Source of the DNA: Coprothermobacterota bacterium
GTDB taxonomy: Bacteria > Coprothermobacterota > HKB111
DNA length: 64,000 nucleotides
Assembly (NCBI GenBank): GCA_037440465.1
Contig: JBBIUB010000001.1
Span: 20,307 to 84,306, forward strand
Direction of reading: 5' to 3'
Shown: one piece after another, positions 23,021 to 35,167 of the stretch
Position numbering within the stretch: the stretch's first letter is position 1
Layout of the letters: each line of letters begins with the position of its first letter
Notes under the pieces: generated by a model
Databases searched by the model: none
What the model saw: only the letters and a program-made list of their open reading frames with translations
Told to the model about the DNA's origin: nothing
Program-made: the position numbers and the translations under genes

Positions 23021-24103
23021 TCACCTCCCTGAATGAAGAGCTTTTAATTTAATTCTTTCTATTTCTTCTGGTTTCAAGACTCTTTCAAAACTTCTAAAAC
23101 CTGCCAACTTAAAACCATGCTTCTTCGCTAACTCACTTATCTCTACTACTTTAGAAATATCTAATTCCTTGCCTAATGAAAAAGTATTATATTTTCGTTC
23201 TAATGTCAGAATCATTGTTTCAGACATACAAGCATATGCCAAGCCTGGAGGAAACCCAAAATTATAATTAAAAGATGGTGTTCCAGGAACTTTAATTACA
23301 CCACCTTCAATAACCAAAACATCTTCCCTATCTCGAGATACTCTTGTAGAAACATCTCTTGGTCTTGCTACATCACATACTACAGCTCCAGGTTTTAACA
23401 TCTCAGGCTCTATTACTTGATGAACTGCGCTGGAAACAGCTACAATAGCATCTGCCCTTTTAATCCCCTTTGATATTGAAGAAGTTGATTCTACACTCAA
23501 TCCTTCTTCCATTAAAGATCTACTAATTTCATTTAGTTTCTCTTCATTCCTTCCTATTAAAACTGTGCTCTTAAATCTTGGCGCCATTAAATAAGCAGCA
23601 GCTTTACCTATTGAGCCTGTAGCACCTACTATGGCTAGCTCAGCATCTTTTGAATCAACTTCCATAAGTTTCAAAGCCTCAAAAGTCCCTTCTATTGCTG
23701 ATGCTACCGTATAACTATTTCCAGTTGTAACAGCAATTTTAAGATTTTCTTTTATAGTAATTCCACCATCTCCAACCACTGAGGTAAAAGCCCCAAGCCC
23801 AACAATGCTTGCGCCCTGACTTTCCGCAAGCTTACCAGCTTCAATTATCTTTTCATAGACATATGGCAAGGGGAGGGTTACCATCTGTTCGGAAGTTAGA
23901 GGACAAGCAATGAAGAACCCTTCAATCTCCTCACCGTTATAATCAGACTTTATACCTTTTATATAAGAACTCACAAAAGCTTTTCGTTTTTTTAAAAGAT
24001 TTAGAACGAGTGAGGGTGGAAGAAATCTTGCCCAACTTAATTTCTTAACGATGTCATTATAATTTATAGGATGGAGAATAAAAGCAAATATTTCCATGTC
24101 CAA
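23021..24103 (-). CDS. NAD(P)-dependent oxidoreductase of the cyanobacterial acyl-ACP reductase (AAR)-like family
   Basis: Similarity to Synechococcus AAR runs across the whole length: GASIVGLGAFTSVV vs HGIDISALGGFTSII; VTTGNSYTVASAIE vs FTTGNTHTAYVICR; LAIVGATGSIGKAAAYL vs VAVVGATGDIGSAVCRW; VLVIEGGVIK vs IYVLNGGVVE; AYACMSETMILTLE vs FACFAEAMLLEFE. Confidence 0.6.
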   Translation of the reverse strand: MDMEIFAFILHPINYNDIVKKLSWARFLPPSLVLNLLKKRKAFVSSYIKGIKSDYNGEEIEGFFIACPLTSEQMVTLPLPYVYEKIIEAGKLAESQGASIVGLGAFTSVVGDGGITIKENLKIAVTTGNSYTVASAIEGTFEALKLMEVDSKDAELAIVGATGSIGKAAAYLMAPRFKSTVLIGRNEEKLNEISRSLMEEGLSVESTSSISKGIKRADAIVAVSSAVHQVIEPEMLKPGAVVCDVARPRDVSTRVSRDREDVLVIEGGVIKVPGTPSFNYNFGFPPGLAYACMSETMILTLERKYNTFSLGKELDISKVVEISELAKKHGFKLAGFRSFERVLKPEEIERIKLKALHSGR

Positions 24104-24106
24104 TTC

Positions 24107-25018
24107 TCAGGGATTAAGAAAATCTATCCTTGGTCTCAAGGAGATTCTTTCCAGGAATTTCTCAGCTTCTTCATTAGTAACCTCATCAGGTGGTTTATCC
24201 AGAAAGGAAACTAACAATCCTTCAATAACATTGGTTCCAAAGGAGCGCCCTTCCCATTCTGGCGTAGTAGTTACTAGAAGTTTAACCCCTCTTTCTTTTA
24301 GGAGTTCCCGATCTTCACTCGTTACAGTATTAGTTAATATTAACTTTCCTTTCAAATCCAAGGGTGAATATCTTCTTATGAAATGAAAATCACCTGCTAT
24401 AAGATCTGCCCAATCAAAATAATGAGTAAAACGAGGTTCACTTTCATCTTGTTTTTTACCAACAGGATAAAGAAAACTCATAGGGAGGTAAGTAAGAATG
24501 GGAAGTAGCAAAGAAGCAACAATATCTACTGATTTAAGTGTCCTTAAAGGAAAAGGAAGTCCAAGAGCAAAAAGGAAGTCTCCAAATATAAGAGGACACC
24601 CGATCTGGCTTAACGCTTCACTAATGCTGTATCTATCAACAGCACTTACTACCAGTGTTTTTGTCTTATTATTAATTATTCCTTGGTTAAATAAAGTAAA
24701 AACAACCTTATTTTCCCAATTATTTTTTATTAGGGCACCATCTACAACATATGATTTCTTTACTAAATTTTTTAGTTTTAAGGCATCCTTTATGATATAT
24801 CTCTTATTTTTTGCAAATAAATATAGGCTTATACCGCCAAGGCCTATAGCATTTACCTGGCCATCTTGTTCTTTTATAAGGTCAAACATCCTGGAGAAAT
24901 TGCCATCTGTCCCTATCCTTTCAAGGCTGACTTTCTCTCCCAGAATATCTAACTCTACTCTATGATTTCTCTTAGATGAACCTAAACTAATGCTAACAAT
25001 TTTTTTCATTGACACCAC
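24107..25018 (-). CDS. Conserved hypothetical protein, possibly AroM-like (Asp/Glu racemase-like fold)
   Basis: A 303-aa soluble protein with an N-terminal IVSISLGSS...IGLGGIS block and a C-terminal LILTNTVTSEDRELLKERGVKLLVTT block, loosely resembling E. coli AroM. It is immediately downstream of the AAR-like gene with a 3-nt gap. Confidence 0.3.
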   Translation of the reverse strand: MVSMKKIVSISLGSSKRNHRVELDILGEKVSLERIGTDGNFSRMFDLIKEQDGQVNAIGLGGISLYLFAKNKRYIIKDALKLKNLVKKSYVVDGALIKNNWENKVVFTLFNQGIINNKTKTLVVSAVDRYSISEALSQIGCPLIFGDFLFALGLPFPLRTLKSVDIVASLLLPILTYLPMSFLYPVGKKQDESEPRFTHYFDWADLIAGDFHFIRRYSPLDLKGKLILTNTVTSEDRELLKERGVKLLVTTTPEWEGRSFGTNVIEGLLVSFLDKPPDEVTNEEAEKFLERISLRPRIDFLNP

Positions 25019-25119
25019 CCATTTTCTTAAGCTTGAAAATTATATCACAATAAGGTATTAAAACAAAAAAACTCTACAGAGAACCTTTTTTCTTAATATG
25101 AAAGAGCATGAAAAAATTA

Positions 25120-25194
25120 TGGAGCCGGCAGAGGGAGTTGGACCCTCAACCTGCTGATTACGATTCAGCTGCTCTACCATTGAGCTACACCGGC
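25120..25194 (-). tRNA. tRNA-Thr (anticodon CGT)
   Basis: The minus-strand sequence is GCCGGTGTAGCTCAATGGTAGAGCAGCTGAATCGTAATCAGCAGGTTGAGGGTCCAACTCCCTCTGCCGGCTCCA. It has a 7-bp acceptor stem with two G-U pairs, anticodon loop ATCGTAA, and an encoded CCA. The T-loop TCCAACT is slightly atypical. Confidence 0.75.
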
Positions 25195-25288
25195 TCCGTA
25201 AATTTTAGCACATGATTCTTGACTTTTGACCCTTCGCCCGATTAATAGTTTCCAAAATCGGATAATCTCCAAATTAGTTGTCTACATT

Positions 25289-25471
25289 AAGGATTCAAAG
25301 AGTCAATGAATATAGGACCCAAGAGGTCCAGGATTCAAGGGTTCAAGTGAATTGCATATGAATAACAAAGGAATAAAGGGTTATAGAAGTTGATTTTTTT
25401 ATTTTCTCTCGAATCCTCGAATCCTTGAATCCTCTAACCCTTCTTAGTAAACACTCGAAACCTTGAATCCT
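25289..25471. repeat. Imperfect inverted-repeat element of about 180 bp built from GGATTCAAG / CTTGAATCC units, 95 bp from tRNA-Thr
   Basis: The left arm carries AGGATTCAAAGAGTC and AGGATTCAAGGGTTCAAG. The right arm carries CTCGAATCCTTGAATCCT and CTCGAAACCTTGAATCCT, which are reverse complements of the left units and include a tandem GAATCC run. An internal palindrome GGACCCAAGAGGTCC is also present. No ORF is associated. Confidence 0.5.
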
Positions 25472-25576
25472 ATTTAGATAACCCATATAAAATTAATATC
25501 AATTCAAGTCAGTAATAGAGTAAAATATATTTGGTTTTATTAAACATACATAACTGGAATTACGGGAGGTTATTTA

Positions 25577-26581
25577 ATGCAAAAGATAGGTGTAATCTCA
25601 TACGGGTTAGGTCCTATTGGAAAAGGAATTGCCAAGACTGCTCATCAGAGGAAGGAATTAATCTTAATTGGTGGAGTAGATATTAATCCACAATTACATG
25701 GTAAAGATTTTGGAGAAGTAATTAGCATTGGTCCACTTGGTGTAAAAATAAAAAGCAGTCTTAAAGAAATCCCTGTTGAACAAGCAAAGGTTGTCTTACA
25801 TTCTACTCAATCATCATTTCCAAAGGTTTTTGATCAGCTTGAAGAAATCGCTAAATTAGGACTTAATATTATCTCAACCACAGAAGAATTATCTTACCCT
25901 TTTATCAAATATCCAGTACTTTCTGAGAAACTTGACAAGATAGCTAAAGAAAATGGTATTACCATACTCGGGACAGGAGTAAACCCGGGTTTTTTAATGG
26001 ATTCTTTTCCTCTATTCATCACATCAGTATCTAATAAAGTTAAGAGAATCCATATACTACGTTTGATGGACGCATCCAAAAGAAGAGGACCATTCCAAGT
26101 TAAGATTGGTTCAGGACTTACTACCCATGAATTTCATAACCTGGTTAAAAATGGAAAACTGGGTCATGTCGGACTTGAAGAATCAATTCAGTTTATCACT
26201 ACCTCCTTAAAGGTAGAGTTAGGAGACTACAAAGAATCTATCAAACCTGTACTTGCTGAAGAAAATATTAAAACAGATTATTTAGAAGTTTCTGCTGGTA
26301 TGGTAAGAGGTATTGATCAGGTTGGCATTGGATTTGATAAAGAAGGTAATGAAATAGTACGATTAGAGTTCAAGGCTTATCTTGAAGCTAAGAATCCACA
26401 TGATTTAATTGAAATTGAGGGTGATCCTTCTTTAACAGTTGTTATCCCTGGTGGAGTTCCGGGTGACATTGCTACTTCTTCTATAGTAACAAATGCCATA
26501 CCAAGAGTACTAAATGCATCTCCAGGTCTTCTTACAATGAAAGATATCCCAATAACTCATAATTTTGGAAGTTTTAAGTAG
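25577..26581 (+). CDS. DapB-like NAD(P)H-dependent amine dehydrogenase family protein (2,4-diaminopentanoate dehydrogenase-like)
   Basis: It has an N-terminal Rossmann fold (MQKIGVISYGLGPIGKGIAKTA) and a C-terminal DapB_C-like region, and its 334-aa length matches the Ord/native-AmDH family. An RBS (GGGAGG) is upstream. Confidence 0.5.
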   Translation: MQKIGVISYGLGPIGKGIAKTAHQRKELILIGGVDINPQLHGKDFGEVISIGPLGVKIKSSLKEIPVEQAKVVLHSTQSSFPKVFDQLEEIAKLGLNIISTTEELSYPFIKYPVLSEKLDKIAKENGITILGTGVNPGFLMDSFPLFITSVSNKVKRIHILRLMDASKRRGPFQVKIGSGLTTHEFHNLVKNGKLGHVGLEESIQFITTSLKVELGDYKESIKPVLAEENIKTDYLEVSAGMVRGIDQVGIGFDKEGNEIVRLEFKAYLEAKNPHDLIEIEGDPSLTVVIPGGVPGDIATSSIVTNAIPRVLNASPGLLTMKDIPITHNFGSFK

Positions 26582-26595
26582 CGAGAGACTTAGAA

Positions 26596-27624
26596 ATGAA
26601 AGCAATTGTTAAGAAAACTTTAGAAAAGGGAGTCTCTCTTGAGGAGGTTGGAATACCCCAACCAAGAGAAGGAGAGGTACTTATTAAAGTAAAATATTCT
26701 TCTATTTGCGGCACAGATCTTCATATTTACCTCTCAGACAACTGGGCTACCAATAGGATTCATCCACCTCTCATAATTGGACACGAAATGGGTGGAGAGG
26801 TTGTAGAACTTGGACCCAAAGTATCCCATATCAAGTTAGGAGATAGAGTTGGTGTTGAAACTCACATAGTTAACTGGAAAACTCGAGAATCAAGAACAGG
26901 TAAAGCACATCTATGTTCCAGCACAAAAATCCTTGGTGTAGACATGGATGGATCTTTTGCTGAGTATGTGGTATTACCAGAAGTAAATGTAATACCCAAC
27001 CCAACATCAATACCAGATGAATTCTTATCGATTGAAGAACCACTTGGTAACGCTGTTCATGCAGCCACAACCGTTAGTGTTCCTGGTAAAAATGTACTCG
27101 TTGTGGGAAGTGGCCCAGTAGGGCTTCTACTTATTGCTGTTTTAAAATGTTTTGGCACAACGAGAGTATTTGTCTCTGAGATAAATCGTTATCGACTTGA
27201 TTTAGCTCAGAAGGTTGGTGCAGACAGAGCTATTAACCCTAAAGAGTTAGACCTTTTAGAAATCATCCGTGAGGAAACAGGAGGAGAAGGTTTAGATATT
27301 GCATTTGACATGTCTGGAAATAGCTCGGGAATAAACCAAGCTATTAAATCATTAAGACCGGGTGGAGATATGGTTTTCTTTGGTTTACCCAGGATGCCTG
27401 TGAATATAAATATCGCAGATGACATTATTTTTAGAGGATTAACTCTACATGGAATAATAGGACGAAAAATGTTTGACACCTGGTATGAGGTATTAGACCT
27501 CCTTGAGAACAAAAAGATAGATTTAGGACCTATCATTACCCACCGTTTCCCATATGAAGAGATAGACAAAGCCATGGATTTAATGGACAGAGGAGAATCC
27601 GGGAAAATTCTTCTCTTCCCTTAG
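26596..27624 (+). CDS. tdh: L-threonine 3-dehydrogenase (Zn-dependent MDR family)
   Basis: A catalytic zinc site (CGTDLH) and a structural zinc region are present, with a GSGPVGLL Rossmann fold. It is 342 aa and adjacent to kbl. Confidence 0.8.
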   Translation: MKAIVKKTLEKGVSLEEVGIPQPREGEVLIKVKYSSICGTDLHIYLSDNWATNRIHPPLIIGHEMGGEVVELGPKVSHIKLGDRVGVETHIVNWKTRESRTGKAHLCSSTKILGVDMDGSFAEYVVLPEVNVIPNPTSIPDEFLSIEEPLGNAVHAATTVSVPGKNVLVVGSGPVGLLLIAVLKCFGTTRVFVSEINRYRLDLAQKVGADRAINPKELDLLEIIREETGGEGLDIAFDMSGNSSGINQAIKSLRPGGDMVFFGLPRMPVNINIADDIIFRGLTLHGIIGRKMFDTWYEVLDLLENKKIDLGPIITHRFPYEEIDKAMDLMDRGESGKILLFP

Positions 27625-27628
27625 GAGG

Positions 27629-28828
27629 ATGAAAATGAAACCATTTATTGAAGAAATCCTTAGAAACAACTTGAAGAAGTTAGAAGATGAACACTTACTT
27701 ATCACTTTAAAAATTCTCTCATCTTCTCAAGGACCCTGGGTTGAGATGGGAGGAAGAAGGGTTTTAAATCTTTCTTCAAATAATTATCTTGGATTCAACT
27801 CACACCCATCACTTATAAAAGCTTCCATTGAAGCAACAGAAAAATGGGGAGTTGGTTCAGGTGCAGTTCGTACGATAGTAGGTACACAAGAAATTCATAT
27901 GGAGTTGGAACACGAGCTTGCTTCCTTCAAGAAGGTTGGTGCATGCCTGGTTTTTCAATCAGGTTATGCCACTAACCTTGGCGTTATTCAAGCACTCATG
28001 ACAGAGGGAGATGTAATTATCTCAGATGAACTGAACCACGCTTCTATAATTGATGGTGCCCGTCTTTCTAAAGCAAAGATTCATGTTTACCGCCATGTTG
28101 ATATGAATCACTTAGAAGAAAAACTAAAGGAAGCCAGAGATTTAAAACCTGGAAAAATCCTTTTAGTTACCGATGGTGTCTTCAGCATGGACGGGGACAT
28201 TGCTCCACTACCACAGATTACAGAGCTTGCTGAAAGATATGAAGCTATCTTGATGGTAGACGATGCTCACGCATCTGGAGTTCTTGGAAGAAATGGAAGA
28301 GGTACTGTTGACCATTTCAATCTTCACGGTAGAGTTGACATCCAAGTTGGTACACTTTCAAAAGCACTTGGTACCATGGGAGGTTATGTAGCAAGTAGTC
28401 AAACATTTGTAACATTCTTGATACAAAAAGGGCGTCCAATCCTCTTCTCTACTTCCCACCCTCCAGGAGTTGTAGCTGCTACTTTAGTTTCACTAAAAAT
28501 CATCAATTCACTTGAAGGAGAAGAATTGATTAAGAAACTCTGGGAGAACACAGGTTATTTCAAAGATAACCTTAAAAACGCCGGGTTTAATATTGGTGTT
28601 TCCCAGACTCCAATTACTCCTATAATGGTAGGAGATGCTGAAGTTGCCCAGAAATACAGTTCCCTGCTTTTAGAAGATGGTGTCCTTGCTCTGGGAATTG
28701 GTTATCCTACTGTAGCTCTCGGTAAAGCTCGGATTAGAACTATAGTCACATCTTCTCATACAAAAAAAGACCTGGACCTCGCCCTGAAAACTCTCTGTAA
28801 AATAGGGAGAAAAATAGGTATCATCTAA
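27629..28828 (+). CDS. kbl: 2-amino-3-ketobutyrate CoA ligase (glycine C-acetyltransferase)
   Basis: A 399-aa fold-type I aminotransferase of the 8-amino-7-oxononanoate synthase family (SNNYLGF, DDAHASGVLG, the TLSKALG PLP-Lys region). It is paired with tdh. Confidence 0.85.
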   Translation: MKMKPFIEEILRNNLKKLEDEHLLITLKILSSSQGPWVEMGGRRVLNLSSNNYLGFNSHPSLIKASIEATEKWGVGSGAVRTIVGTQEIHMELEHELASFKKVGACLVFQSGYATNLGVIQALMTEGDVIISDELNHASIIDGARLSKAKIHVYRHVDMNHLEEKLKEARDLKPGKILLVTDGVFSMDGDIAPLPQITELAERYEAILMVDDAHASGVLGRNGRGTVDHFNLHGRVDIQVGTLSKALGTMGGYVASSQTFVTFLIQKGRPILFSTSHPPGVVAATLVSLKIINSLEGEELIKKLWENTGYFKDNLKNAGFNIGVSQTPITPIMVGDAEVAQKYSSLLLEDGVLALGIGYPTVALGKARIRTIVTSSHTKKDLDLALKTLCKIGRKIGII

Positions 28829-28831
28829 TAA

Positions 28832-29722
28832 ATGCTGTATAATAGCAATTTGAACCCCTCAACCTTTTCCGGGGTGAGTAAGCTTTTATCTATATTGAAT
28901 ATAACTCCTAATAAAAGGAAAGGTCAAAATTTTCTAATAGATCAGAACCTGGCAAACAAAATCACTTCTACTTTGAACATGGAAACCCATGAAACAATAC
29001 TTGAAGTAGGAGGTGGACTTTTATCTCTTAGTATGCCTCTCATAAGAGAGGGTAAAAAGCTAATAACTGTTGAGGTAGACCCTTCTTTCGTCCCATGGTA
29101 TGTGAAAGTTAAAAAAGTATATACAAACTTTGATTACTTAATAGCTGATATAAGAGATGTACTTGATAATGTTGATAATTATTTTAAAGAGAATCCCCCA
29201 AGTCTTTTGCTTGGAAACCTTCCCTACTATTTAAGTACTCATTTATTATTTATTCTCTTTCCTTTAAGATGGTGGAAAGTAGCTGTTTTTACACTTCAAA
29301 AAGAAGTTGTAGAAAGGTTAATGGCAATACCTGGCTCAAAAAATAGGTCACCGCTGACATTAATGAGAGAAGAATATGCAGGAATTGAACCCATTTCAGA
29401 ATTACCCCCATCTGTATTCTATCCAAAACCCGGAGTTTCTTCCTTAGCTGTAAAATTTACCAAAACAGAACCAATGGTTTCTTCAGAAAAAGAAGAAGCA
29501 GTTTTAAGAAAGATTATTTTCTACAGCTTCACAAAAAAAAGAAAGACAATTCTTAACAGTCTAAGTATGTCCACCTTGAATTTAGGTAAAGAAAAGGTGT
29601 TTTATCTTCTGAAAGAAACGAATATTGACCCCCAATTAAGAGCGGAAGATTTAAGTTTTAATGACTTCCTCAACCTCACTCATACTTTTCTAAGACATGA
29701 CTTTTCCATCACTGACTCTTAA
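28832..29722 (+). CDS. rsmA: 16S rRNA (adenine1518/1519-N6)-dimethyltransferase
   Basis: The KsgA motifs GQNFLIDQNLANKI and LEVGGG are present, with an NLPY region. Confidence 0.9.
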   Translation: MLYNSNLNPSTFSGVSKLLSILNITPNKRKGQNFLIDQNLANKITSTLNMETHETILEVGGGLLSLSMPLIREGKKLITVEVDPSFVPWYVKVKKVYTNFDYLIADIRDVLDNVDNYFKENPPSLLLGNLPYYLSTHLLFILFPLRWWKVAVFTLQKEVVERLMAIPGSKNRSPLTLMREEYAGIEPISELPPSVFYPKPGVSSLAVKFTKTEPMVSSEKEEAVLRKIIFYSFTKKRKTILNSLSMSTLNLGKEKVFYLLKETNIDPQLRAEDLSFNDFLNLTHTFLRHDFSITDS

Positions 29723-30560
29723 ATCTCCTGCTAAGATAAACTTAACTCTTGATATAAAAGGACTCAGGAATGATGGGTTTCACAATATTGACTCCTTAAT
29801 AACATTATTGTCATTACATGACGAAATAATATTTACACCTGGTAAAAGAGGTGTCGAGTTTACCTTTTTATATGATTCTGGACAATGGGATCATTCATTA
29901 TCAACAGTTCACCAAGCACTAATACTTTTTAATGAATATTTCAAAATGACTAAAGATATTAAAATAAAGGTTATCAAAAGAATACCTCCTAAAAGTGGTC
30001 TTGGAGGAGGAAGCAGTAACGGTGCTACTGTTCTTAGGGGATTAAACATTTTACACAATAACCCTTTAAGTATAGATAATCTACATAAATTGGCTATGCA
30101 AATAGGTTCTGATGTTCCTCTCTTTGTTAGAAAAGGTGGTTGGATGAGGATTACTGGTAGAGGAGAAATAATTGAAGAGTTACCCCTTGATCTTTCACTT
30201 TTCCTTGTAATTGTTCTAACCAGAATAAATATATCTACTAAACAAGCATACAGTTTTTGGGATGAAAAAGTGAATGAATATACTTCCTACACTGAAAATT
30301 TTTTATCTTCGTTAACGATAAATGATTTGGGTAACTCCTTCTTCCCAATAGTTGAAAAAAGGTTTCCCGAAATTCAATCTCTAAAAGGAATTCTATTAAA
30401 TGAAGGTGCTCCTGCTATTGGATTGAGCGGAAGTGGTGGAACTCTTTTTGTTCCTTTCAGTAATATTATAGAAGCAAACTCGTTTTATAAAAAAATATAT
30501 CCATTAATGGGGAAAAAAGGAGTTAAGACATTATTTGAAACTGTTCCAAATTACTTATAA
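29697..30560 (+). CDS. ispE: 4-diphosphocytidyl-2-C-methyl-D-erythritol kinase
   Basis: PAKINLTLDIKG and the GHMP kinase motif PPKSGLGGGSSNGA are present. It overlaps rsmA by 26 nt. Confidence 0.9.
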   Translation: MTFPSLTLKSPAKINLTLDIKGLRNDGFHNIDSLITLLSLHDEIIFTPGKRGVEFTFLYDSGQWDHSLSTVHQALILFNEYFKMTKDIKIKVIKRIPPKSGLGGGSSNGATVLRGLNILHNNPLSIDNLHKLAMQIGSDVPLFVRKGGWMRITGRGEIIEELPLDLSLFLVIVLTRINISTKQAYSFWDEKVNEYTSYTENFLSSLTINDLGNSFFPIVEKRFPEIQSLKGILLNEGAPAIGLSGSGGTLFVPFSNIIEANSFYKKIYPLMGKKGVKTLFETVPNYL

Positions 30561-31428
30561 AAAAACTGGTTACCTGATGATCTTCTTAGCAGCATCAATA
30601 TGGGGTTCCCTGGGAGTCCTGGGTAAGATAGCTTATCAGGAGGGATTTGCTCCTTTAGAACTCATGATTTACAGAAGTATCCTGGCTTCACTAGTATTAG
30701 CCATTATTCTCTTGATTTACAAACCAGGGCTTTACATAATTGACATCAGAGATATACCCTTCTTTTTGGTCTATGGTACCCTGAGCGTGGGAATTTTTTA
30801 TCTCCTCTACTTCTCTTCCCTTCTCTACCTGAAGGTAGGAGTGGCCAGTGCTCTTCTTTACACGGCTCCATTTTTCGTGGTAATCATGTCAAGAATTATC
30901 TTTAAAGAACCAATTAGCTTTTTAAAAATATTTGCTCTAATAAGCACAATAACCGGGGTAATTCTACTGGGGAAAGTATTTCCTCTGGATAATCTAAACA
31001 TTCTTATGTTTAAAGGTTTAATGTATGGACTTGGCTCAGGATTTACCTATGCCCTGTACACCATTTTTGGCAAAAAGGCTCTGACTAAATATTCTCCTGC
31101 TACTCTTATATTTTACACCCTCATATCTGGGTCATTAACTTTAGTACTTTTTCTGATTCTTAAGAGAGAACCACTGAATTTCCTCCTTACTCCAAAAGCC
31201 ATCCTATCAGTAGTTCTGTTGAGCCTGATAACCACTCTTTTAGCCTATTATCTTTATGTAGAAGGTTTAAAGAGAGTGGAAGCAGGTAGGGCCTCTATCC
31301 TGTCCACAATAGAACCTGTGGTGGCCTGGGGATTGGGATTTATCTTTTTAGGAGAACAACTAACATTATTAGAAGGCTTTGGCCTTTTTATGATTTTAAT
31401 AGGGGCCAGCATAGTCGTATCAAACTAA
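30535..31428 (+). CDS. EamA/DMT-family transporter
   Basis: It has 10 predicted TM helices and two EamA repeats. The true start may be the internal ATG at 30577 (MIFLAASIWGS...), which would remove the overlap with ispE. Confidence 0.8.
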   Translation: MKLFQITYKKTGYLMIFLAASIWGSLGVLGKIAYQEGFAPLELMIYRSILASLVLAIILLIYKPGLYIIDIRDIPFFLVYGTLSVGIFYLLYFSSLLYLKVGVASALLYTAPFFVVIMSRIIFKEPISFLKIFALISTITGVILLGKVFPLDNLNILMFKGLMYGLGSGFTYALYTIFGKKALTKYSPATLIFYTLISGSLTLVLFLILKREPLNFLLTPKAILSVVLLSLITTLLAYYLYVEGLKRVEAGRASILSTIEPVVAWGLGFIFLGEQLTLLEGFGLFMILIGASIVVSN

Positions 31429-31470
31429 ATAAAAGGTATAATTTATAAAAATTTACTAACTCTGGAAAAT

Positions 31471-32910
31471 ATGATAAACAATAAAAAATTAGAATATTTG
31501 AAAATTAAATTAGCAAAGGCTATTAAGAAAGAAAGTGTCTCTCTTAATAAATTATATACTGCAAGATTAAAAAAAGACGGTGGAAATTCCTACCAGAAAA
31601 TTCCTGAAGAAGAGCTGTCAAAAGACACATCCAGGGTTATTGAAGCTCACATCGCAATCCTTGAGAGAAATGACTGGAGTATTATTGAAGAATTTTCTGA
31701 TTATATCACTGTTAAATTTGAAGAAGGATTTTCTTCCAAAGAAATATACCAGATATTCACAACAAGTGGAGTTGTTCTTAAAACCTTTATTAAAGACGGA
31801 TTCTACCCTGAAGAAGCCTGTGAACTAATATCTATATTATGGGAGCAGGTAGAAAAAATCTACGAATTTGCTGACAAAAAATTAGATGAACTTGCTTCAG
31901 AAAGATATCAGGAAAAAATGCTGCATTTAACAACTATTTATAAAACAAGCATTGCTTGTAGTTCCACCATTAGACTTGAAGAAATAGCTGCAACTGCTTT
32001 TAATAAGCTCAAGGAATTTTTACCGATGGAAAGTTTTTACCTGGCAATTTTCAAGGAAGATACTAATACTCTAAACTTTGACTATATTGTGGACCAGGGG
32101 AATGTACTACCAAGTTTTTCCAGAAAATTAGAAGAGGGAGTAGAAACAATCTCTACCTGGGTTTTAAAGAATAAAACGCCTTTACTAATAAGGGATTTGG
32201 AAAAAGAGACTTTACCAACAGGAATAGTTTTAGTGGGTACTCCACCAAACCCCCGTTCTATTCTCATTGTACCTCTTATACTTAAAAATAAACCTTTAGG
32301 AATTATTTCTCTTCAAGCATTCTCTCCCAATGCTTACGATGAGAAAATATTAGAACTTATAAAAATGATTGCTAATAATTTAGCTTTAGCTATTGATAAT
32401 GCTTTTTTATATGAAAATACTTATGAATCTTCTATTACTGATTATCTTACTGGATTATACAATAGACTTCATTTCACAAATATTTTAAACCTGGAAATAA
32501 ACCGCTCTAACAGGTATAAAACTAAATTTACCTTACTTATGGGTGATGTAGATGATTTTAAAATTTACAATGATAACCTTGGCTATTTAAAGGGAGATGA
32601 GATTCTAAAAGAAATTTCAAATGTCTTAAAAGAAAATGTTAGGTCATCCGATATCGTATTTCGCTTTGGTGGCGATGAATTCGTGATTCTTCTACCCTCT
32701 AATGAGAGAGAATCAGCTAGGCCATTAATCAAAAGAATAAAGGAGGGGCTTTCAAGAATGAGTCCACTAGTATCTATGACCTGGAGTGTACTCTGTTATC
32801 CTGAAGACGCTCCGGATAAGGATGTCTTGATCTCTATGGCTGACACCATTCTCAAAGAAGGGAAAAGGATGCGAAATCACAACTTATTGGAACCGCCTCC
32901 TTTAAAATAA
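31471..32910 (+). CDS. Diguanylate cyclase (GGDEF) with a GAF-like sensor and an uncharacterised N-terminal domain
   Basis: The C-terminal GGDEF domain has an intact active site (RFGGDEFVILLP). The central region is GAF-like (IRDLEKETLPTG...ISLQAF), and the first roughly 160 aa match no family. Confidence 0.85.
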   Translation: MINNKKLEYLKIKLAKAIKKESVSLNKLYTARLKKDGGNSYQKIPEEELSKDTSRVIEAHIAILERNDWSIIEEFSDYITVKFEEGFSSKEIYQIFTTSGVVLKTFIKDGFYPEEACELISILWEQVEKIYEFADKKLDELASERYQEKMLHLTTIYKTSIACSSTIRLEEIAATAFNKLKEFLPMESFYLAIFKEDTNTLNFDYIVDQGNVLPSFSRKLEEGVETISTWVLKNKTPLLIRDLEKETLPTGIVLVGTPPNPRSILIVPLILKNKPLGIISLQAFSPNAYDEKILELIKMIANNLALAIDNAFLYENTYESSITDYLTGLYNRLHFTNILNLEINRSNRYKTKFTLLMGDVDDFKIYNDNLGYLKGDEILKEISNVLKENVRSSDIVFRFGGDEFVILLPSNERESARPLIKRIKEGLSRMSPLVSMTWSVLCYPEDAPDKDVLISMADTILKEGKRMRNHNLLEPPPLK

Positions 32911-32923
32911 ATAAAATTAGCTT

Positions 32924-33139
32924 TTACTTATTTTCTTTTATATAATAACTATTACCTTCAATAAGAGCTCCAAAAAGCCCTACTTCATTTCCCCAATTAT
33001 CTAACACTTTAACCTTACCTTTTAGAGCTTGTTTATAAACCTCTTCACTATATGCAAGGAGGGCATGTCTAACCTCCATCTTAGTAAAAAGATGAATCTC
33101 CACGCCCTCCACATAAACTAAAATTGTTTCTTTTTCCAA
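32924..33139 (-). CDS. Small hypothetical protein (71 aa)
   Basis: Its start abuts the stop of the upstream nucleotidase gene, and its codon usage is consistent with neighbouring genes. No homology is recognised. Confidence 0.3.
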   Translation of the reverse strand: MEKETILVYVEGVEIHLFTKMEVRHALLAYSEEVYKQALKGKVKVLDNWGNEVGLFGALIEGNSYYIKENK

Positions 33140-35167
33140 CTATGGTTTAACTTTAATCCTTCCTTCTATGGTTGGGTTCAAGGTTTTTACTCTCTCAACA
33201 TATCTGATAAAGGCATCTCTCAGGTAATCACCAGTATGTATTAGAAGCTTTCCTTTTGCAAAGACAGTATAACCATCCCCACCAACAGCCAAGAAGTCAT
33301 TTGTAGCCACTTTGTAGGTCCTGGTTGAAACTATAGGCTTGTCACCAACAAAAATCTCTTCTACTCTGCTGTTTACAGGCTTCTTAGGGTCAAAGACAAA
33401 GGATATACCAGAAACCTGGAGAAAACCTCCTAATTCTGCAGGATATCTTGAAACAGATAATTCTAAAGCTTCTCTAATCTGAGCTCCTGTAAGTTCAATC
33501 ACAACAAGATAATTATCAAAGGGTAAAACAGTGAAAACATGGTCCACCTTGATAAGTCCAGCTGGGATAGAAGCCCTAATTCCACCGCCATTTTGTAAAG
33601 CTATTTCAGCTCCTGACTCTATCCTCATAACATCAGCTACTAAATTACCCAGATTGGTTTCTCTTGTTCTTACGAAAGCCCGTGTCCCATCTAAGAGAAC
33701 ATTAGCTGCTCCTATAACTCGATCCATCTGAGTTTTTACCGCATCACTATAAGGCTTGATTAGAGAAGTTACTTGTGGATCTACTAATACATCATTAGAA
33801 GTTGGAATAAGAGCACCTTTAACAAAAAGGTTCTCTTTTACTTTTGGAGTAGGGCTGTCTTTTTCGTAAATAATTTCTCCTTTTCTTACAGCAACTGAAA
33901 CACGACCAAGATTTCTGGTATGCTCGCCTGCCTGCACAATGAAAGTATTTCCAATTTTCTTAGGTTCTTCAACAACTGTATGTGAATGCCCCCCTATTAT
34001 TAAATGAATTCCCTCCACAGATTCAGCTAACTTAACATCCTCAGAAAAACCTATATGTGTAAGAGCAACTATAATCTGAGCTTTTTGCTCTCTCAAGACC
34101 TTCACCATTTTTTTAGCTGTTTCTACTGGATCAAGAATTTTCAAGCCTTTAACATTATCAGGGTGAGTAACATAAGGAAGCTCCGTAGCTATCAAACCAA
34201 AGAACCCTACTTTTTGTCCCATCACATCTACAATACGGTAAGGAACAGCAAAGTACTCTTCCCTATTTTCATAAACCACATTACTGAGGATGTATGGGAA
34301 TGTTGTCTCTAAAAACCTATCTTTTAAGGTACTTTGACCATAATTGAAATCATGATTGCCCAGAGTTGCTACATTAACCCCAATAAGATTCATAGCTTCT
34401 ATGGCAGGTTTTCCCTTAAACAGATTTACCAGATTAGTACCATGAATAGTATCTCCAAGGTCTGCAACTAAAGTCAAGGTAGGGTTTTTTGCTTTCTCAG
34501 TAGATATAAGTGTAGCAATCCTCCCAAAACCACCAATAGCAGGAAGTCCTGTGCCAGGAACAAACGGCTCAAGCCTACCATGGCTATCGTTTAAGTGTAG
34601 GAAGGTTATCGGTCCCCTTATTTTGTAAAGAAGTGCCCATATTTCAGCTTGGGTAAGCACAGAACGAGGTTTCAGTGATTTATCTGGATAACCTGTGATT
34701 ATCTTCTCTTTAACAGCTACAGCTATAGATTTAATGAATAAAGGATTTATCTGGTCATAATCTTTATAAGGAGAAAGAATGGTATCTGCTTCTTTTAGTG
34801 ACATTATTTTTGCCAATAGACGACGATTAGCTATTCTGATAATAATTGTTATAGCTTCTTCACGAGTGATGAAGTCTTCCGGTCTGAACGGTTCTCGGAG
34901 AATGAGATCAAGTTTTCTTCCCTGAGCTTCAAGCAACCATGTCTCTTCCTTCACTTCCACAGGATAAAGCTTTAAAGAAATCTTAAGAAACTCCTGATGT
35001 GTTACCCAATCGTAAGGTTTTAAAGGTTCTACAAAGTCCCCTGTTTCTGTAAAGAATTCTACAGCCTCTTTAATCCAAGCAGGTGTTATTTTTTCCTGGG
35101 AAAATAGAACTTGAGGAGAGAGAAAAATAGCCAATACAAGAGTTATTACCAGCAACTTTTTAAACAT
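33140..35167 (-). CDS. SLH-domain-anchored bifunctional metallophosphatase / 5'-nucleotidase
   Basis: A signal peptide is followed by SLH-like repeats in the first roughly 150 aa (...FRPEDFITREEAITIIIRIANRRLL). Then come a calcineurin-like phosphoesterase domain (HLNDSHGRLEP, GNHDFNYG, GGHSH) and a 5'-nucleotidase C-terminal domain. Confidence 0.8.
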   Translation of the reverse strand: MFKKLLVITLVLAIFLSPQVLFSQEKITPAWIKEAVEFFTETGDFVEPLKPYDWVTHQEFLKISLKLYPVEVKEETWLLEAQGRKLDLILREPFRPEDFITREEAITIIIRIANRRLLAKIMSLKEADTILSPYKDYDQINPLFIKSIAVAVKEKIITGYPDKSLKPRSVLTQAEIWALLYKIRGPITFLHLNDSHGRLEPFVPGTGLPAIGGFGRIATLISTEKAKNPTLTLVADLGDTIHGTNLVNLFKGKPAIEAMNLIGVNVATLGNHDFNYGQSTLKDRFLETTFPYILSNVVYENREEYFAVPYRIVDVMGQKVGFFGLIATELPYVTHPDNVKGLKILDPVETAKKMVKVLREQKAQIIVALTHIGFSEDVKLAESVEGIHLIIGGHSHTVVEEPKKIGNTFIVQAGEHTRNLGRVSVAVRKGEIIYEKDSPTPKVKENLFVKGALIPTSNDVLVDPQVTSLIKPYSDAVKTQMDRVIGAANVLLDGTRAFVRTRETNLGNLVADVMRIESGAEIALQNGGGIRASIPAGLIKVDHVFTVLPFDNYLVVIELTGAQIREALELSVSRYPAELGGFLQVSGISFVFDPKKPVNSRVEEIFVGDKPIVSTRTYKVATNDFLAVGGDGYTVFAKGKLLIHTGDYLRDAFIRYVERVKTLNPTIEGRIKVKP

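Follow-up and report, generated by a model that had tools for sequence, protein, structure and literature searches.

A group G1 amine dehydrogenase gene adjoins tdh and kbl in a lineage-specific gene order of Ca. Lithacetigenota

The analysed window, a 64 kb stretch of genomic DNA, carries three genes that are arranged head to tail on the + strand and encode an amine dehydrogenase (ORF1), an L-threonine 3-dehydrogenase (Tdh) and a 2-amino-3-ketobutyrate CoA ligase (Kbl). The original prediction had described these three genes in the same orientation, including the 334-aa ORF1, and all of them were found to be real ORFs separated by gaps of at most 14 nt. The coordinates of the features are listed in Table 1. 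The gene caller chose the 397-aa form of Kbl; an alternative start is located at 27629, but the start at 27635 is probably the correct one, because an AGGAGG sequence lies 6 nt 5' of that ATG.

Table 1. Features identified around the ORF1-tdh-kbl block (positions in the window)
Feature	Coordinates	Strand	Remarks
tRNA-Thr (anticodon CGU)	25120..25194	-	ARAGORN and Rfam; divergent from ORF1
Repeat-rich leader: tandem 8-nt GAATCCT-type units and inverted copies	25289..25471		Repeat search
Shine-Dalgarno sequence GGGAGG	25564..25569	+	7 nt 5' of the ORF1 ATG; sequence reading
ORF1, 334 aa, predicted amine dehydrogenase of orphan group G1 (native-AmDH/Ord family)	25577..26581	+	
tdh, L-threonine 3-dehydrogenase (Zn-MDR)	26596..27624	+	
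kbl, 2-amino-3-ketobutyrate CoA ligase (glycine C-acetyltransferase)	27635..28828	+	Thermus AONS/KBL type; start probable
rsmA (ksgA), 16S rRNA dimethyltransferase	28832..29722	+	3 nt past kbl
ispE, CDP-ME kinase	29697..30560	+	26-nt overlap with rsmA
EamA-family transporter	30535..31428	+	Overlaps ispE
GAF-GGDEF protein	31471..32910	+	Co-directional string ends here

The co-directional string extends past kbl and reads ORF1-tdh-kbl-rsmA-ispE-EamA-GGDEF, with spacers of 14 nt between ORF1 and tdh, 4-10 nt between tdh and kbl, and 3 nt between kbl and rsmA. The promoter and terminator scan yielded counts at or below chance, which therefore cannot define transcription units, and it gave no terminator signal above chance within the ORF1-tdh-kbl block. 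Given the short spacers and the absence of such a signal, the three genes are probably co-transcribed, in agreement with the operon originally proposed. Upstream of ORF1, the inverted copies in the leader include 20-nt arms at 90% complementarity, as seen in the repeat search; this leader was not conserved in the related loci L083, L087 or L179. The gathering and permissive Rfam scans detected no riboswitch and no T-box in the leader, the tRNA being the sole match, and a tRNA occupies the same spot in the three other members of the lineage. Ten further genes of the window, located between 35328 and 46479, were assigned by Pfam to functions including SAH hydrolase, glycerate-kinase-like, PfkB, nitrilase-family and nucleoside hydrolase proteins and ABC components, and none of the ten pointed to the metabolism of threonine, glycine or ornithine.

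The identity of the tdh-kbl pair as the canonical one was borne out by the family scores. Tdh passed the NCBIfam equivalog NF003808 (415 bits, cutoff 380) and scored 404 bits against TIGR00692, which is under the cutoff of 458. Its closest solved structures were the characterised L-threonine dehydrogenases 2dfv (330 bits), 3gfb and 2dq4, all within 309-330 bits, whereas sorbitol dehydrogenase scored 135 bits. Tdh has kept the motifs of the catalytic zinc, CGTDLH, GHE and EEPLGN. The structural-zinc lobe, which is non-catalytic, has lost three of its four cysteines and retains the last one (VNWKTRESRTGKAHLC), while the outgroups show the pattern C-x2-C-x2-C-x7-C. Kbl passed both TIGR01825 (546.5 bits, cutoff 535.4) and PRK06939 (499.9 bits, cutoff 460), and its closest structure was the Thermus AONS/KBL 7poa (430 bits). 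It also exceeded the cutoff of the bioF family TIGR00858 (435.7 bits, cutoff 426.45), therefore a dual role is possible. The tdh-kbl operon of Escherichia coli and Bacillus subtilis encodes these two enzymes in this order as well, likewise with a short spacer. Unlike that operon, the present locus has a G1 amine dehydrogenase gene before tdh, and rsmA and ispE straight after kbl; moreover, its Tdh lacks the three structural-zinc cysteines and its Kbl is of the Thermus AONS/KBL type. The combination of ORF1 with tdh-kbl had been called new, and it is indeed undescribed in the searchable literature; as genomic neighbours of G1 enzymes, tdh and kbl are unreported.

Conservation of the gene order was assessed within and beyond the lineage. 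Four members of a single lineage (Ca. Psychracetigena, candidate phylum Lithacetigenota) shared the ORF1-tdh-kbl order, with the same order and fully syntenic flanks seen in L083 (74%), L179 and L087-L092 (61%, Ca. Psychracetigena). There, ORF1 always directly preceded tdh, at a distance of 2-16 nt, and the string ran on into rsmA and ispE; the whole neighbourhood of ~17 kb was syntenic. Identities within the lineage were 74/61% for ORF1, 73/65% for tdh and 74/70% for kbl, which indicates the same rate for the three genes, while rsmA and ispE evolved faster. Outside the lineage, neither tdh nor kbl was found near G1 genes at any of 86 loci, many of which were short, nor near Ord genes at any of 77 loci. 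A scan of species-representative genomes with a single sequence returned mostly Clostridial Ord (group G2) loci, which served as the negative control for tdh/kbl linkage and as the positive control for Ord synteny. One Caldilineae MAG carried G1 and tdh-kbl on separate contigs, and the Bacillota tdh-kbl pair that was examined had no G1 gene alongside. The expected conservation of the gene order thus holds within one candidate-phylum lineage, where the surroundings are syntenic too, and fails outside it, at the G1 and Ord loci as well as at the tdh-kbl loci of other phyla. ORF1 beside tdh-kbl is therefore a lineage-specific gene order and is not general to G1 or to tdh-kbl pairs. The steady linkage and equal rates within the lineage mean that the pattern fits a functional module too; a functional link of ORF1 to tdh-kbl is weakly supported.

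ORF1 has the two-domain architecture of the G1 enzymes (PMC11164908), such as UniProt E1QRK4 of Vulcanisaeta distributa. Its C-terminal domain was assigned to DAP_DH_C (PF19328; 126.6 bits, cutoff 23.3, 1.3e-36) and its N-terminal Rossmann domain to DapB_N (PF01113; 31.6 bits), and full-length matches were obtained with AmDH4 (6g1m) and 7xdu (E about 1e-55). In a neighbour-joining tree, ORF1 was placed in G1, apart from G2, in 100 of 100 bootstraps, with mean identities of 46.9% to G1 and 33.6% to G2. The original assignment to the Ord/native-AmDH family was upheld, but ORF1 is not a true Ord. Against individual G1 sequences the identity was 41-50%, and the pocket signature S-x-E-G-V-N-F-x-R-x-D-R-F-I-H-V-G...G-T is shared with them, together with Arg P12 and the absence of the P18/P19 loop; ORF1 differs from the usual G1 enzyme in having Thr at P2 (usually Cys or Ala) and Met at P10 (usually Gln, Val or Ile). 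The catalytic Glu103 (P3) aligned with Glu102 of AmDH4 and was invariant in 48 homologues. The cofactor motif reads D35 I36 N37 P38 Q39 L40, of which D35-I36-N37...L40 fits the published NADH rule. On these sequence features, ORF1 is assigned as an NAD(H)-type amine dehydrogenase of the native-AmDH/Ord family, in orphan group G1, the substrates of which were "still not known" in a 2024 family survey (PMC11164908).

In databases, many homologues carry the name dihydrodipicolinate reductase, and NCBI labels the Psychracetigena orthologue, MBT9129831.1, '2,4-diaminopentanoate dehydrogenase'. The first of these names and the weak DapB_N match would favour a DapB or homoserine-dehydrogenase-like enzyme of the aspartate pathway. 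However, ORF1 reached only 28.8 bits against the dapB equivalog TIGR00036 (cutoff 122), over the N-terminal 94 residues (9-102); its C-terminal domain is DAP_DH_C, and the family survey treats the name as a legacy mis-annotation. A DapB identity, against which the original prediction had also decided, is already refuted by the family scores, and the probability left to an aspartate-pathway role is negligible. The second name, along with the unexpected 2,4-diaminopentanoate activity of two G1 enzymes, would suit a genuine 2,4-diaminopentanoate dehydrogenase of ornithine fermentation. The Ord/AmDH4 enzymes of G2 (PDB 6G1M, 6G1H, 7XDU) do share the fold with ORF1 (30-38% identity full-length), as well as the catalytic Glu, Arg P9 and an NADH-type cofactor motif. 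Nevertheless, ORF1 scored 260.4 bits against the Ord equivalog NF040740 (cutoff 400). Its P1-P21 signature is of the published G1 type and differs from G2 at P10, P12, P14, P18 and P19: the Asn P10, Phe/Tyr P12 and Gln P14 of the G2 pocket are replaced by Met, Arg and Ile, and the loop that bears His P18 and Gln P19 is deleted. Furthermore, ortB, oraS, oraE, Or-4 and orr, which accompany Ord at 6-7 of the 8 control loci, had no homologue in the 64 kb window, and most of the G1 enzymes tested were inactive on 2,4-diaminopentanoate. A role of ORF1 as Ord is, therefore, very doubtful.

The pocket of ORF1 comprises S79, T102, E103, G134, V135, N136, F139, L140, R162, M164, D165, R169, F173, I177, H197, V198, G199, G296 and T300, and thus contains the G1 hallmarks Arg162 (P9), Arg169 (P12; Phe or Tyr in G2) and His197 (P15). 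Residues R162, R169, R170, Q174, K176 and H197 were invariant across 48 G1 sequences, and the published model of the G1 enzyme E1QRK4 has the same E103/R162/R169 numbering and a positively charged area. The invariant cationic pocket (Arg162/Arg169/Arg170/Lys176) would imply an anionic, carboxylate-bearing substrate rather than aminoacetone or 1,2-diaminopropane, a reading that is based on residue conservation and the published homology model only. This argues against the substrate originally put forward, namely the aminoacetone that arises when the Tdh product decarboxylates spontaneously, which ORF1 would interconvert with 1,2-diaminopropane. ORF1 does adjoin tdh, and family members of G3 and G4 aminate small neutral ketones. 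ORF1, however, belongs to neither of these groups; it retains the carboxylate-binding Arg P9 that G3 and G4 are missing, in addition to the invariant Arg169, Arg170 and Lys176, and such a cationic pocket is unfavourable for a cationic substrate that has no carboxylate. Cyclohexanone, a neutral ketone, was not a substrate for the G1 enzymes tested, and the linkage to tdh is not conserved beyond the lineage. Conversion of aminoacetone by ORF1 is thus highly improbable.

A rival reading joins ORF1 with Tdh and Kbl in one module. ORF1 would then deaminate 2,3-diaminobutyrate oxidatively to 2-amino-3-ketobutyrate, or catalyse the reverse, so that two dehydrogenases would converge on the intermediate that Kbl cleaves to glycine and acetyl-CoA. 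Such a three-enzyme module would mirror Ord and the OrtAB thiolase that comes after it, on a substrate one carbon shorter. In ornithine fermentation, an amine dehydrogenase of the same family likewise stands beside a PLP enzyme (2-amino-4-ketopentanoate thiolase), which cleaves an alpha-amino keto acid with CoA to acetyl-CoA and an amino acid; Ord-ortB adjacency is the rule in G2. Kbl, in contrast, is an alpha-oxoamine synthase unrelated to OrtB, and we draw the analogy by inference. The close linkage of the three genes in the lineage, and their equal evolutionary constraint there, would agree with the module, and its substrate would keep the alpha-amino acid head group that is the proposed ligand of the conserved Arg162 and His197; 2,3-diaminobutyrate and 2-amino-3-ketobutyrate were absent from the published G1 docking and assays. 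Against it, linkage was missing at 86 of 86 other G1 loci, and the genes were unlinked in a genome holding both. The ORF1 pocket is near-identical to the pockets of G1 enzymes whose gene neighbours differ greatly, therefore a lineage-specific substrate is unlikely. In addition, Arg P12 takes the place of the Ord methyl pocket, yet 2-amino-3-ketobutyrate has a methyl group at that position, and there is no known source of 2,3-diaminobutyrate in these streamlined organisms. The module appears unlikely. It is likewise distinctly unlikely that the intermediate shared by Tdh and Kbl is itself a substrate of the Ca. Lithacetigenota G1 enzyme, in the interconversion of 2-amino-3-ketobutyrate and 2,3-diaminobutyrate or of a close vicinal amino-ketone.

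The best explanation, to which we give a probability of roughly 0.6, is that ORF1 is a G1 amine dehydrogenase for a carboxylated substrate which lies beside tdh-kbl by lineage-specific order, with no more than a possible link to threonine metabolism. By analogy with the family, Glu103 would position the amine or iminium that reacts beside the nicotinamide, and ORF1 would interconvert C-NH2 and C=O, releasing or taking up ammonia. The pocket residues Arg162, Arg169, Arg170, Lys176 and His197 would suit an anionic, carboxylate-bearing amino or keto acid. ORF1 opens the tightly packed string; Tdh and Kbl are predicted to interconvert threonine with glycine and acetyl-CoA. In this lineage, the tdh-kbl pair may plausibly feed or draw on a metabolism centred on glycine, as described for Ca. 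Lithacetigenota (PMC9751293), and ORF1 most likely shares the function of G1 enzymes elsewhere, many of which lie beside a HemL-like aminotransferase.

Within an enzyme family of value for biocatalysis, G1 forms a large and widespread subgroup, with ~1,400 modelled bacterial and archaeal members; docking, screening and a published synteny analysis have not revealed its natural substrate. A genomic association that is reproducible can therefore serve as a clue. The locus adds one lineage-specific clue, tdh-kbl, pointing to compounds never tested on G1, and the pair bears on the supply or consumption of glycine and threonine in the glycine-reducing Lithacetigenota. Were direct action on the Tdh/Kbl intermediate true, G1, with its roughly 1,400 members, would gain its first physiological substrate, and threonine/glycine metabolism would gain a new branch in a phylum that is deep-branching and reduces glycine. 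It is more likely that the association is simply inherited gene order, and the finding is then ordinary. The genes themselves are ordinary, their arrangement is lineage-specific, and the locus is a modest lead for assigning G1 function.

Other neighbours of G1 genes were also observed. Soil G1 genes have HIBADH-like and MBL-fold genes as neighbours, which were not accepted as functional partners, because they are convergent, on the opposite strand, and their loci fall in one GC range (0.56-0.62), probably representing a single lineage. The 64 kb window contained no HemL-like aminotransferase gene. In other phyla, such a gene adjoined G1 genes at 11 loci, 10 of them within 100 bp. These loci displayed both gene orders, ranged in GC from 0.45 to 0.66 and were scattered over the G1 tree, and this recurrent partner may be a broader clue to G1 function than tdh-kbl.

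All three genes named in the original prediction, namely the amine dehydrogenase gene ORF1, tdh and kbl, were present on the + strand, head-to-tail and in the same orientation, at the positions listed in the table. A spacer of 14 nt separates ORF1 from tdh, and only 3 nt lie between kbl and rsmA. An AGGAGG motif overlaps the tdh stop codon and ends 6 nt upstream of the second ATG of kbl, so that 27635 is the likelier start. A consensus scan of 24900-33200 gave no terminators or promoters above chance, and co-transcription of the three genes is probable. The + strand string continues past kbl with rsmA, an overlapping ispE, an overlapping EamA transporter gene and a GAF-GGDEF protein gene, so in this compact genome close spacing extends to genes that clearly have no pathway in common.

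Features of the ORF1 neighbourhood (window positions)
Feature	Position	Strand	Product
ORF1	25577-26581	+	334 aa
tdh	26596-27624	+	342 aa
AGGAGG motif	27623-27628		
kbl	27629/27635-28828	+	399 or 397 aa
tRNA-Thr(CGU)	25120-25194	-	
Repeat-rich leader	25289-25471		
Divergent gene pair	23021-25018	-	

Family assignment was performed with profile models, structural relatives and pocket residues. ORF1 matched PF19328 (DAP_DH_C) at 126.6 bits, together with DapB_N. An identity as DapB was rejected, as the dapB equivalog (cutoff 122 bits) reached 28.8 bits and covered the Rossmann domain only; a bona fide 2,4-diaminopentanoate dehydrogenase (Ord) was likewise rejected (NF040740, 260 bits; cutoff 400). 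The nearest solved relatives were 7xdu and the Petrotoga AmDH4 (6g1m/6g1h), both with full-length alignments at E ~1e-55, while the Cfus/Msme-type native amine dehydrogenases (AmDHs) reached only ~70 bits.

The native-AmDH/Ord family has been divided by 21 pocket positions, P1 to P21 in AmDH4 numbering, into groups G1 to G5, of which G1 had no solved structure in the 2024 survey (PMC11164908). These positions were taken from an alignment of ORF1, 119 of its top homologues, 75 loci from species-representative genomes, AmDH4 and 7xdu. The ORF1 pocket reads S79, T102, E103, G134, V135, N136, F139, L140, R162, M164, D165, R169, F173, I177, H197, V198, G199, two gaps, G296 and T300. This is the published G1 pattern, with Arg at P12, Arg at P9, His at P15 and the loop carrying His P18 and Gln P19 missing; it differs from the pattern of Ord, group G2 (Asn P10, Phe P12, Gln P14, His P18, Gln P19). 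The G1-type pocket was found in all 119 top homologues aligned, and the G2-type in 72/72 aligned Clostridial-type loci. A neighbour-joining tree placed ORF1 within G1 and apart from G2 in 100/100 bootstraps, and mean identity was 46.9% to G1 and 33.6% to G2. The expected membership of the Ord/native-AmDH family, without DapB clustering, was thus borne out, although the enzyme groups with G1 and not with Ord itself. ORF1 is an additional member of a known but orphan subgroup, and the public annotation of its orthologue as '2,4-diaminopentanoate dehydrogenase' is probably wrong. The cofactor positions R1-R6 (D35, I36, N37, P38, Q39, L40) form a predicted NADH-type motif, as in AmDH4, by the rule of PMC11164908.

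The order ORF1-tdh-kbl-rsmA-ispE, with ORF1 directly upstream, recurs in three further relatives (L083, L179 and L087-L092), the last being Ca. Psychracetigena formicireducens (NCBI label 'candidate division WS2', candidate phylum Lithacetigenota). However, the ~17 kb around the trio, from the UDP-GlcNAc epimerase gene to smpB, is fully syntenic in all lineage members, and the trio is therefore conserved no more than the background. Identities to L083/L087 were 74/61% for ORF1, 73/65% for tdh and 74/70% for kbl, while rsmA (59/54%) and ispE (50/47%) diverge faster; ORF1, tdh and kbl are thus all under real constraint. The window was identified as contig CAZLUH010000001.1 of MAG GCA_964562715.1 (source samples SRR11582151, SRR11582158 and SRR8371833). 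Ca. Psychracetigena formicireducens is also the nearest named relative of the organism of the window, and its phylum is reported to occur exclusively in serpentinite-hosted systems. With ORF1 at 61% identity and the neighbouring genes at 47-70%, the organism is clearly a separate member.

Outside the lineage the linkage disappears. No tdh or kbl homologue was found within 8 kb in any of 80 species-representative loci (77 G2 and 3 G1), nor near G1 genes in 80 metagenomic loci (tblastn E <=1e-5; 678 kb in total, with 31 loci of at least 8 kb). In Caldilineae, Latescibacteria and one further lineage, G1 genes stand among unrelated neighbours. Tdh identity falls from 64-73% inside the lineage to 50% or less outside, and the closest tdh-kbl pairs of other lineages, one from a Bacillota MAG and one from a Caldilineae MAG, lack a G1 gene. 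The most telling case is the Caldilineae assembly GCA_011176545.1, in which G1 lies on contig DUEN01000103 and tdh-kbl on DUEN01000073. True Ord loci served as the positive control for the linkage method: ortB, oraS, oraE, Or-4 and orr turned up in six or seven of the eight; the window holds no homologue of these genes. Conservation in relatives thus extends to three lineage members as part of background synteny and stops there; the locus is a version of the tdh-kbl operon peculiar to this lineage. As had been proposed, no description of this combination was found in the searchable literature.

Tdh and Kbl convert threonine to glycine and acetyl-CoA, and the pair is reversible. Both are ordinary enzymes. 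Tdh scores 415 bits with the NCBIfam equivalog NF003808, above its cutoff of 380. Among solved structures it comes closest to characterised threonine dehydrogenases from Pyrococcus, Thermococcus and Thermus (309-330 bits), followed by sorbitol dehydrogenase as the next structure class at 135 bits. Kbl scores above the cutoffs of TIGR01825 and of PRK06939, the equivalog for glycine C-acetyltransferase, with the Thermus bifunctional AONS/KBL 7poa (430 bits) and E. coli Kbl 1fc4 (323 bits) as nearest structures. Since it also exceeds the BioF equivalog cutoff (435.7 against 426.45 bits) and its best structural match is bifunctional, Kbl may double as 8-amino-7-oxononanoate synthase in this streamlined genome. 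Relatives of the organism have been described as streamlined and glycine-reducing, and tdh-kbl could therefore either supply glycine to glycine reductase or build threonine from glycine. At Tdh residues ~92-107, three of the four structural-zinc cysteines are gone (VNWKTRESRTGKAHLC). The 73%-identity relative shows the same state, two relatives at 65-66% (one of them Ca. Psychracetigena) keep 3/4 and the outgroups 4/4, so that the zinc lobe looks to have been lost stepwise within the lineage.

Going by the rest of the family, ORF1 would catalyse a reversible oxidative deamination in which Glu103 would hold the amine or iminium in position while hydride passes to or from NAD(H). E103, R162, R169, R170, Q174, K176 and H197 are invariant across 48 diverse G1 sequences, and a homology model of the G1 enzyme E1QRK4 describes a 'positively charged area R162-R169' (PMC11164908). 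Together these suggest a G1 substrate bearing at least one carboxylate or other anionic group. The proposed action on aminoacetone or 1,2-diaminopropane fits this invariant cationic pocket poorly, because both compounds are cationic and lack a carboxylate. ORF1 also keeps the P9 arginine, unlike G3 and G4, the groups that aminate neutral ketones (PMC11164908), and tested G1 enzymes had no activity with cyclohexanone.

Compared with G1 enzymes from very different gene neighbourhoods, the ORF1 pocket has no more than one or two substitutions among 19 positions (P10 Gln to Met; P2, usually Cys, to Thr). The simplest reading is therefore that ORF1 has the general G1 function and that its place beside tdh-kbl is inherited gene order, to which we assign a probability of about 0.6. 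In the best alternative, ORF1 would interconvert 2,3-diaminobutyrate and 2-amino-3-ketobutyrate, so that ORF1 and Tdh would both feed Kbl, by analogy with Ord followed by OrtAB. Its substrate would stay carboxylated, but ORF1-type genes are unlinked to tdh-kbl elsewhere and the P12 arginine fills what is the methyl pocket in Ord, which leaves it improbable. Neither of these compounds, nor aminoacetone, is among those docked or assayed for G1 in the published work (PMC11164908). The original prediction was thus accurate in its observation of the three genes and their arrangement, and only partly so in its interpretation. The locus is of modest interest: it generates hypotheses for an orphan enzyme group but does not amount to evidence of a new pathway.

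A more general lead for the G1 enzymes than the tdh-kbl neighbourhood came from a class-III aminotransferase of the glutamate-1-semialdehyde aminomutase (HemL) family, found beside G1 in 11 of 86 non-lineage loci (L103, L105, L108, L116, L120, L135, L137, L140, L143, L160 and L168). These proteins scored ~264-274 bits against a family model cutoff of 398 and are GntE-like too. The gene is on the same strand as G1 in all 11 loci, upstream in four and downstream in seven, with a gap of 22-95 bp in ten and a position ~1.9 kb downstream in the eleventh. The loci range in GC from 0.45 to 0.66 and are scattered over the G1 tree, and they account for eight of the 20 nearest relatives that ORF1 has beyond the lineage. 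The pairing looks like an independent, recurrent partnership, echoing the aminomutase-then-dehydrogenase logic of the ornithine pathway, and the aminotransferase may be a real functional partner of G1. The window itself has no such gene.

Several further features surround these genes. In Latescibacteria (L094-L098, 9080-11861), three co-directional genes come after G1, namely those for an iron-type alcohol dehydrogenase, a 79-aa ORF and an aldo-keto reductase, another dehydrogenase-rich context. In Ca. Psychracetigena (L087-L092, 7749-7949; L090, 52-252), the ORF1 orthologue is preceded at a distance of 51 nt by a DUF6485 gene (66 aa) in the same orientation, which the window, L083 and L179 lack. 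The tRNA-Thr(CGU) gene lies directly upstream of the ORF1-led operon, which holds threonine dehydrogenase, and is divergent from it. A tRNA occupies the equivalent site in all three other lineage members, and the juxtaposition could be a coincidence. In the leader that separates this tRNA from ORF1, an 8-nt GAATCCT-type unit is repeated four times in tandem and also occurs in inverted copies, among them 20-nt arms of 90% complementarity, 102 nt apart. This repeat region has no Rfam match and is missing in the shorter leaders of the relatives; it may have been left by an insertion, or may be a structured or regulatory element. The divergent gene pair is kept across the lineage and followed by greA and lysS. 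Its 303-aa protein has no match in Pfam or NCBIfam, and its 360-aa Rossmann protein resembles the PigE N-terminal domain (205 bits) and cyanobacterial acyl-ACP reductase (98 bits).
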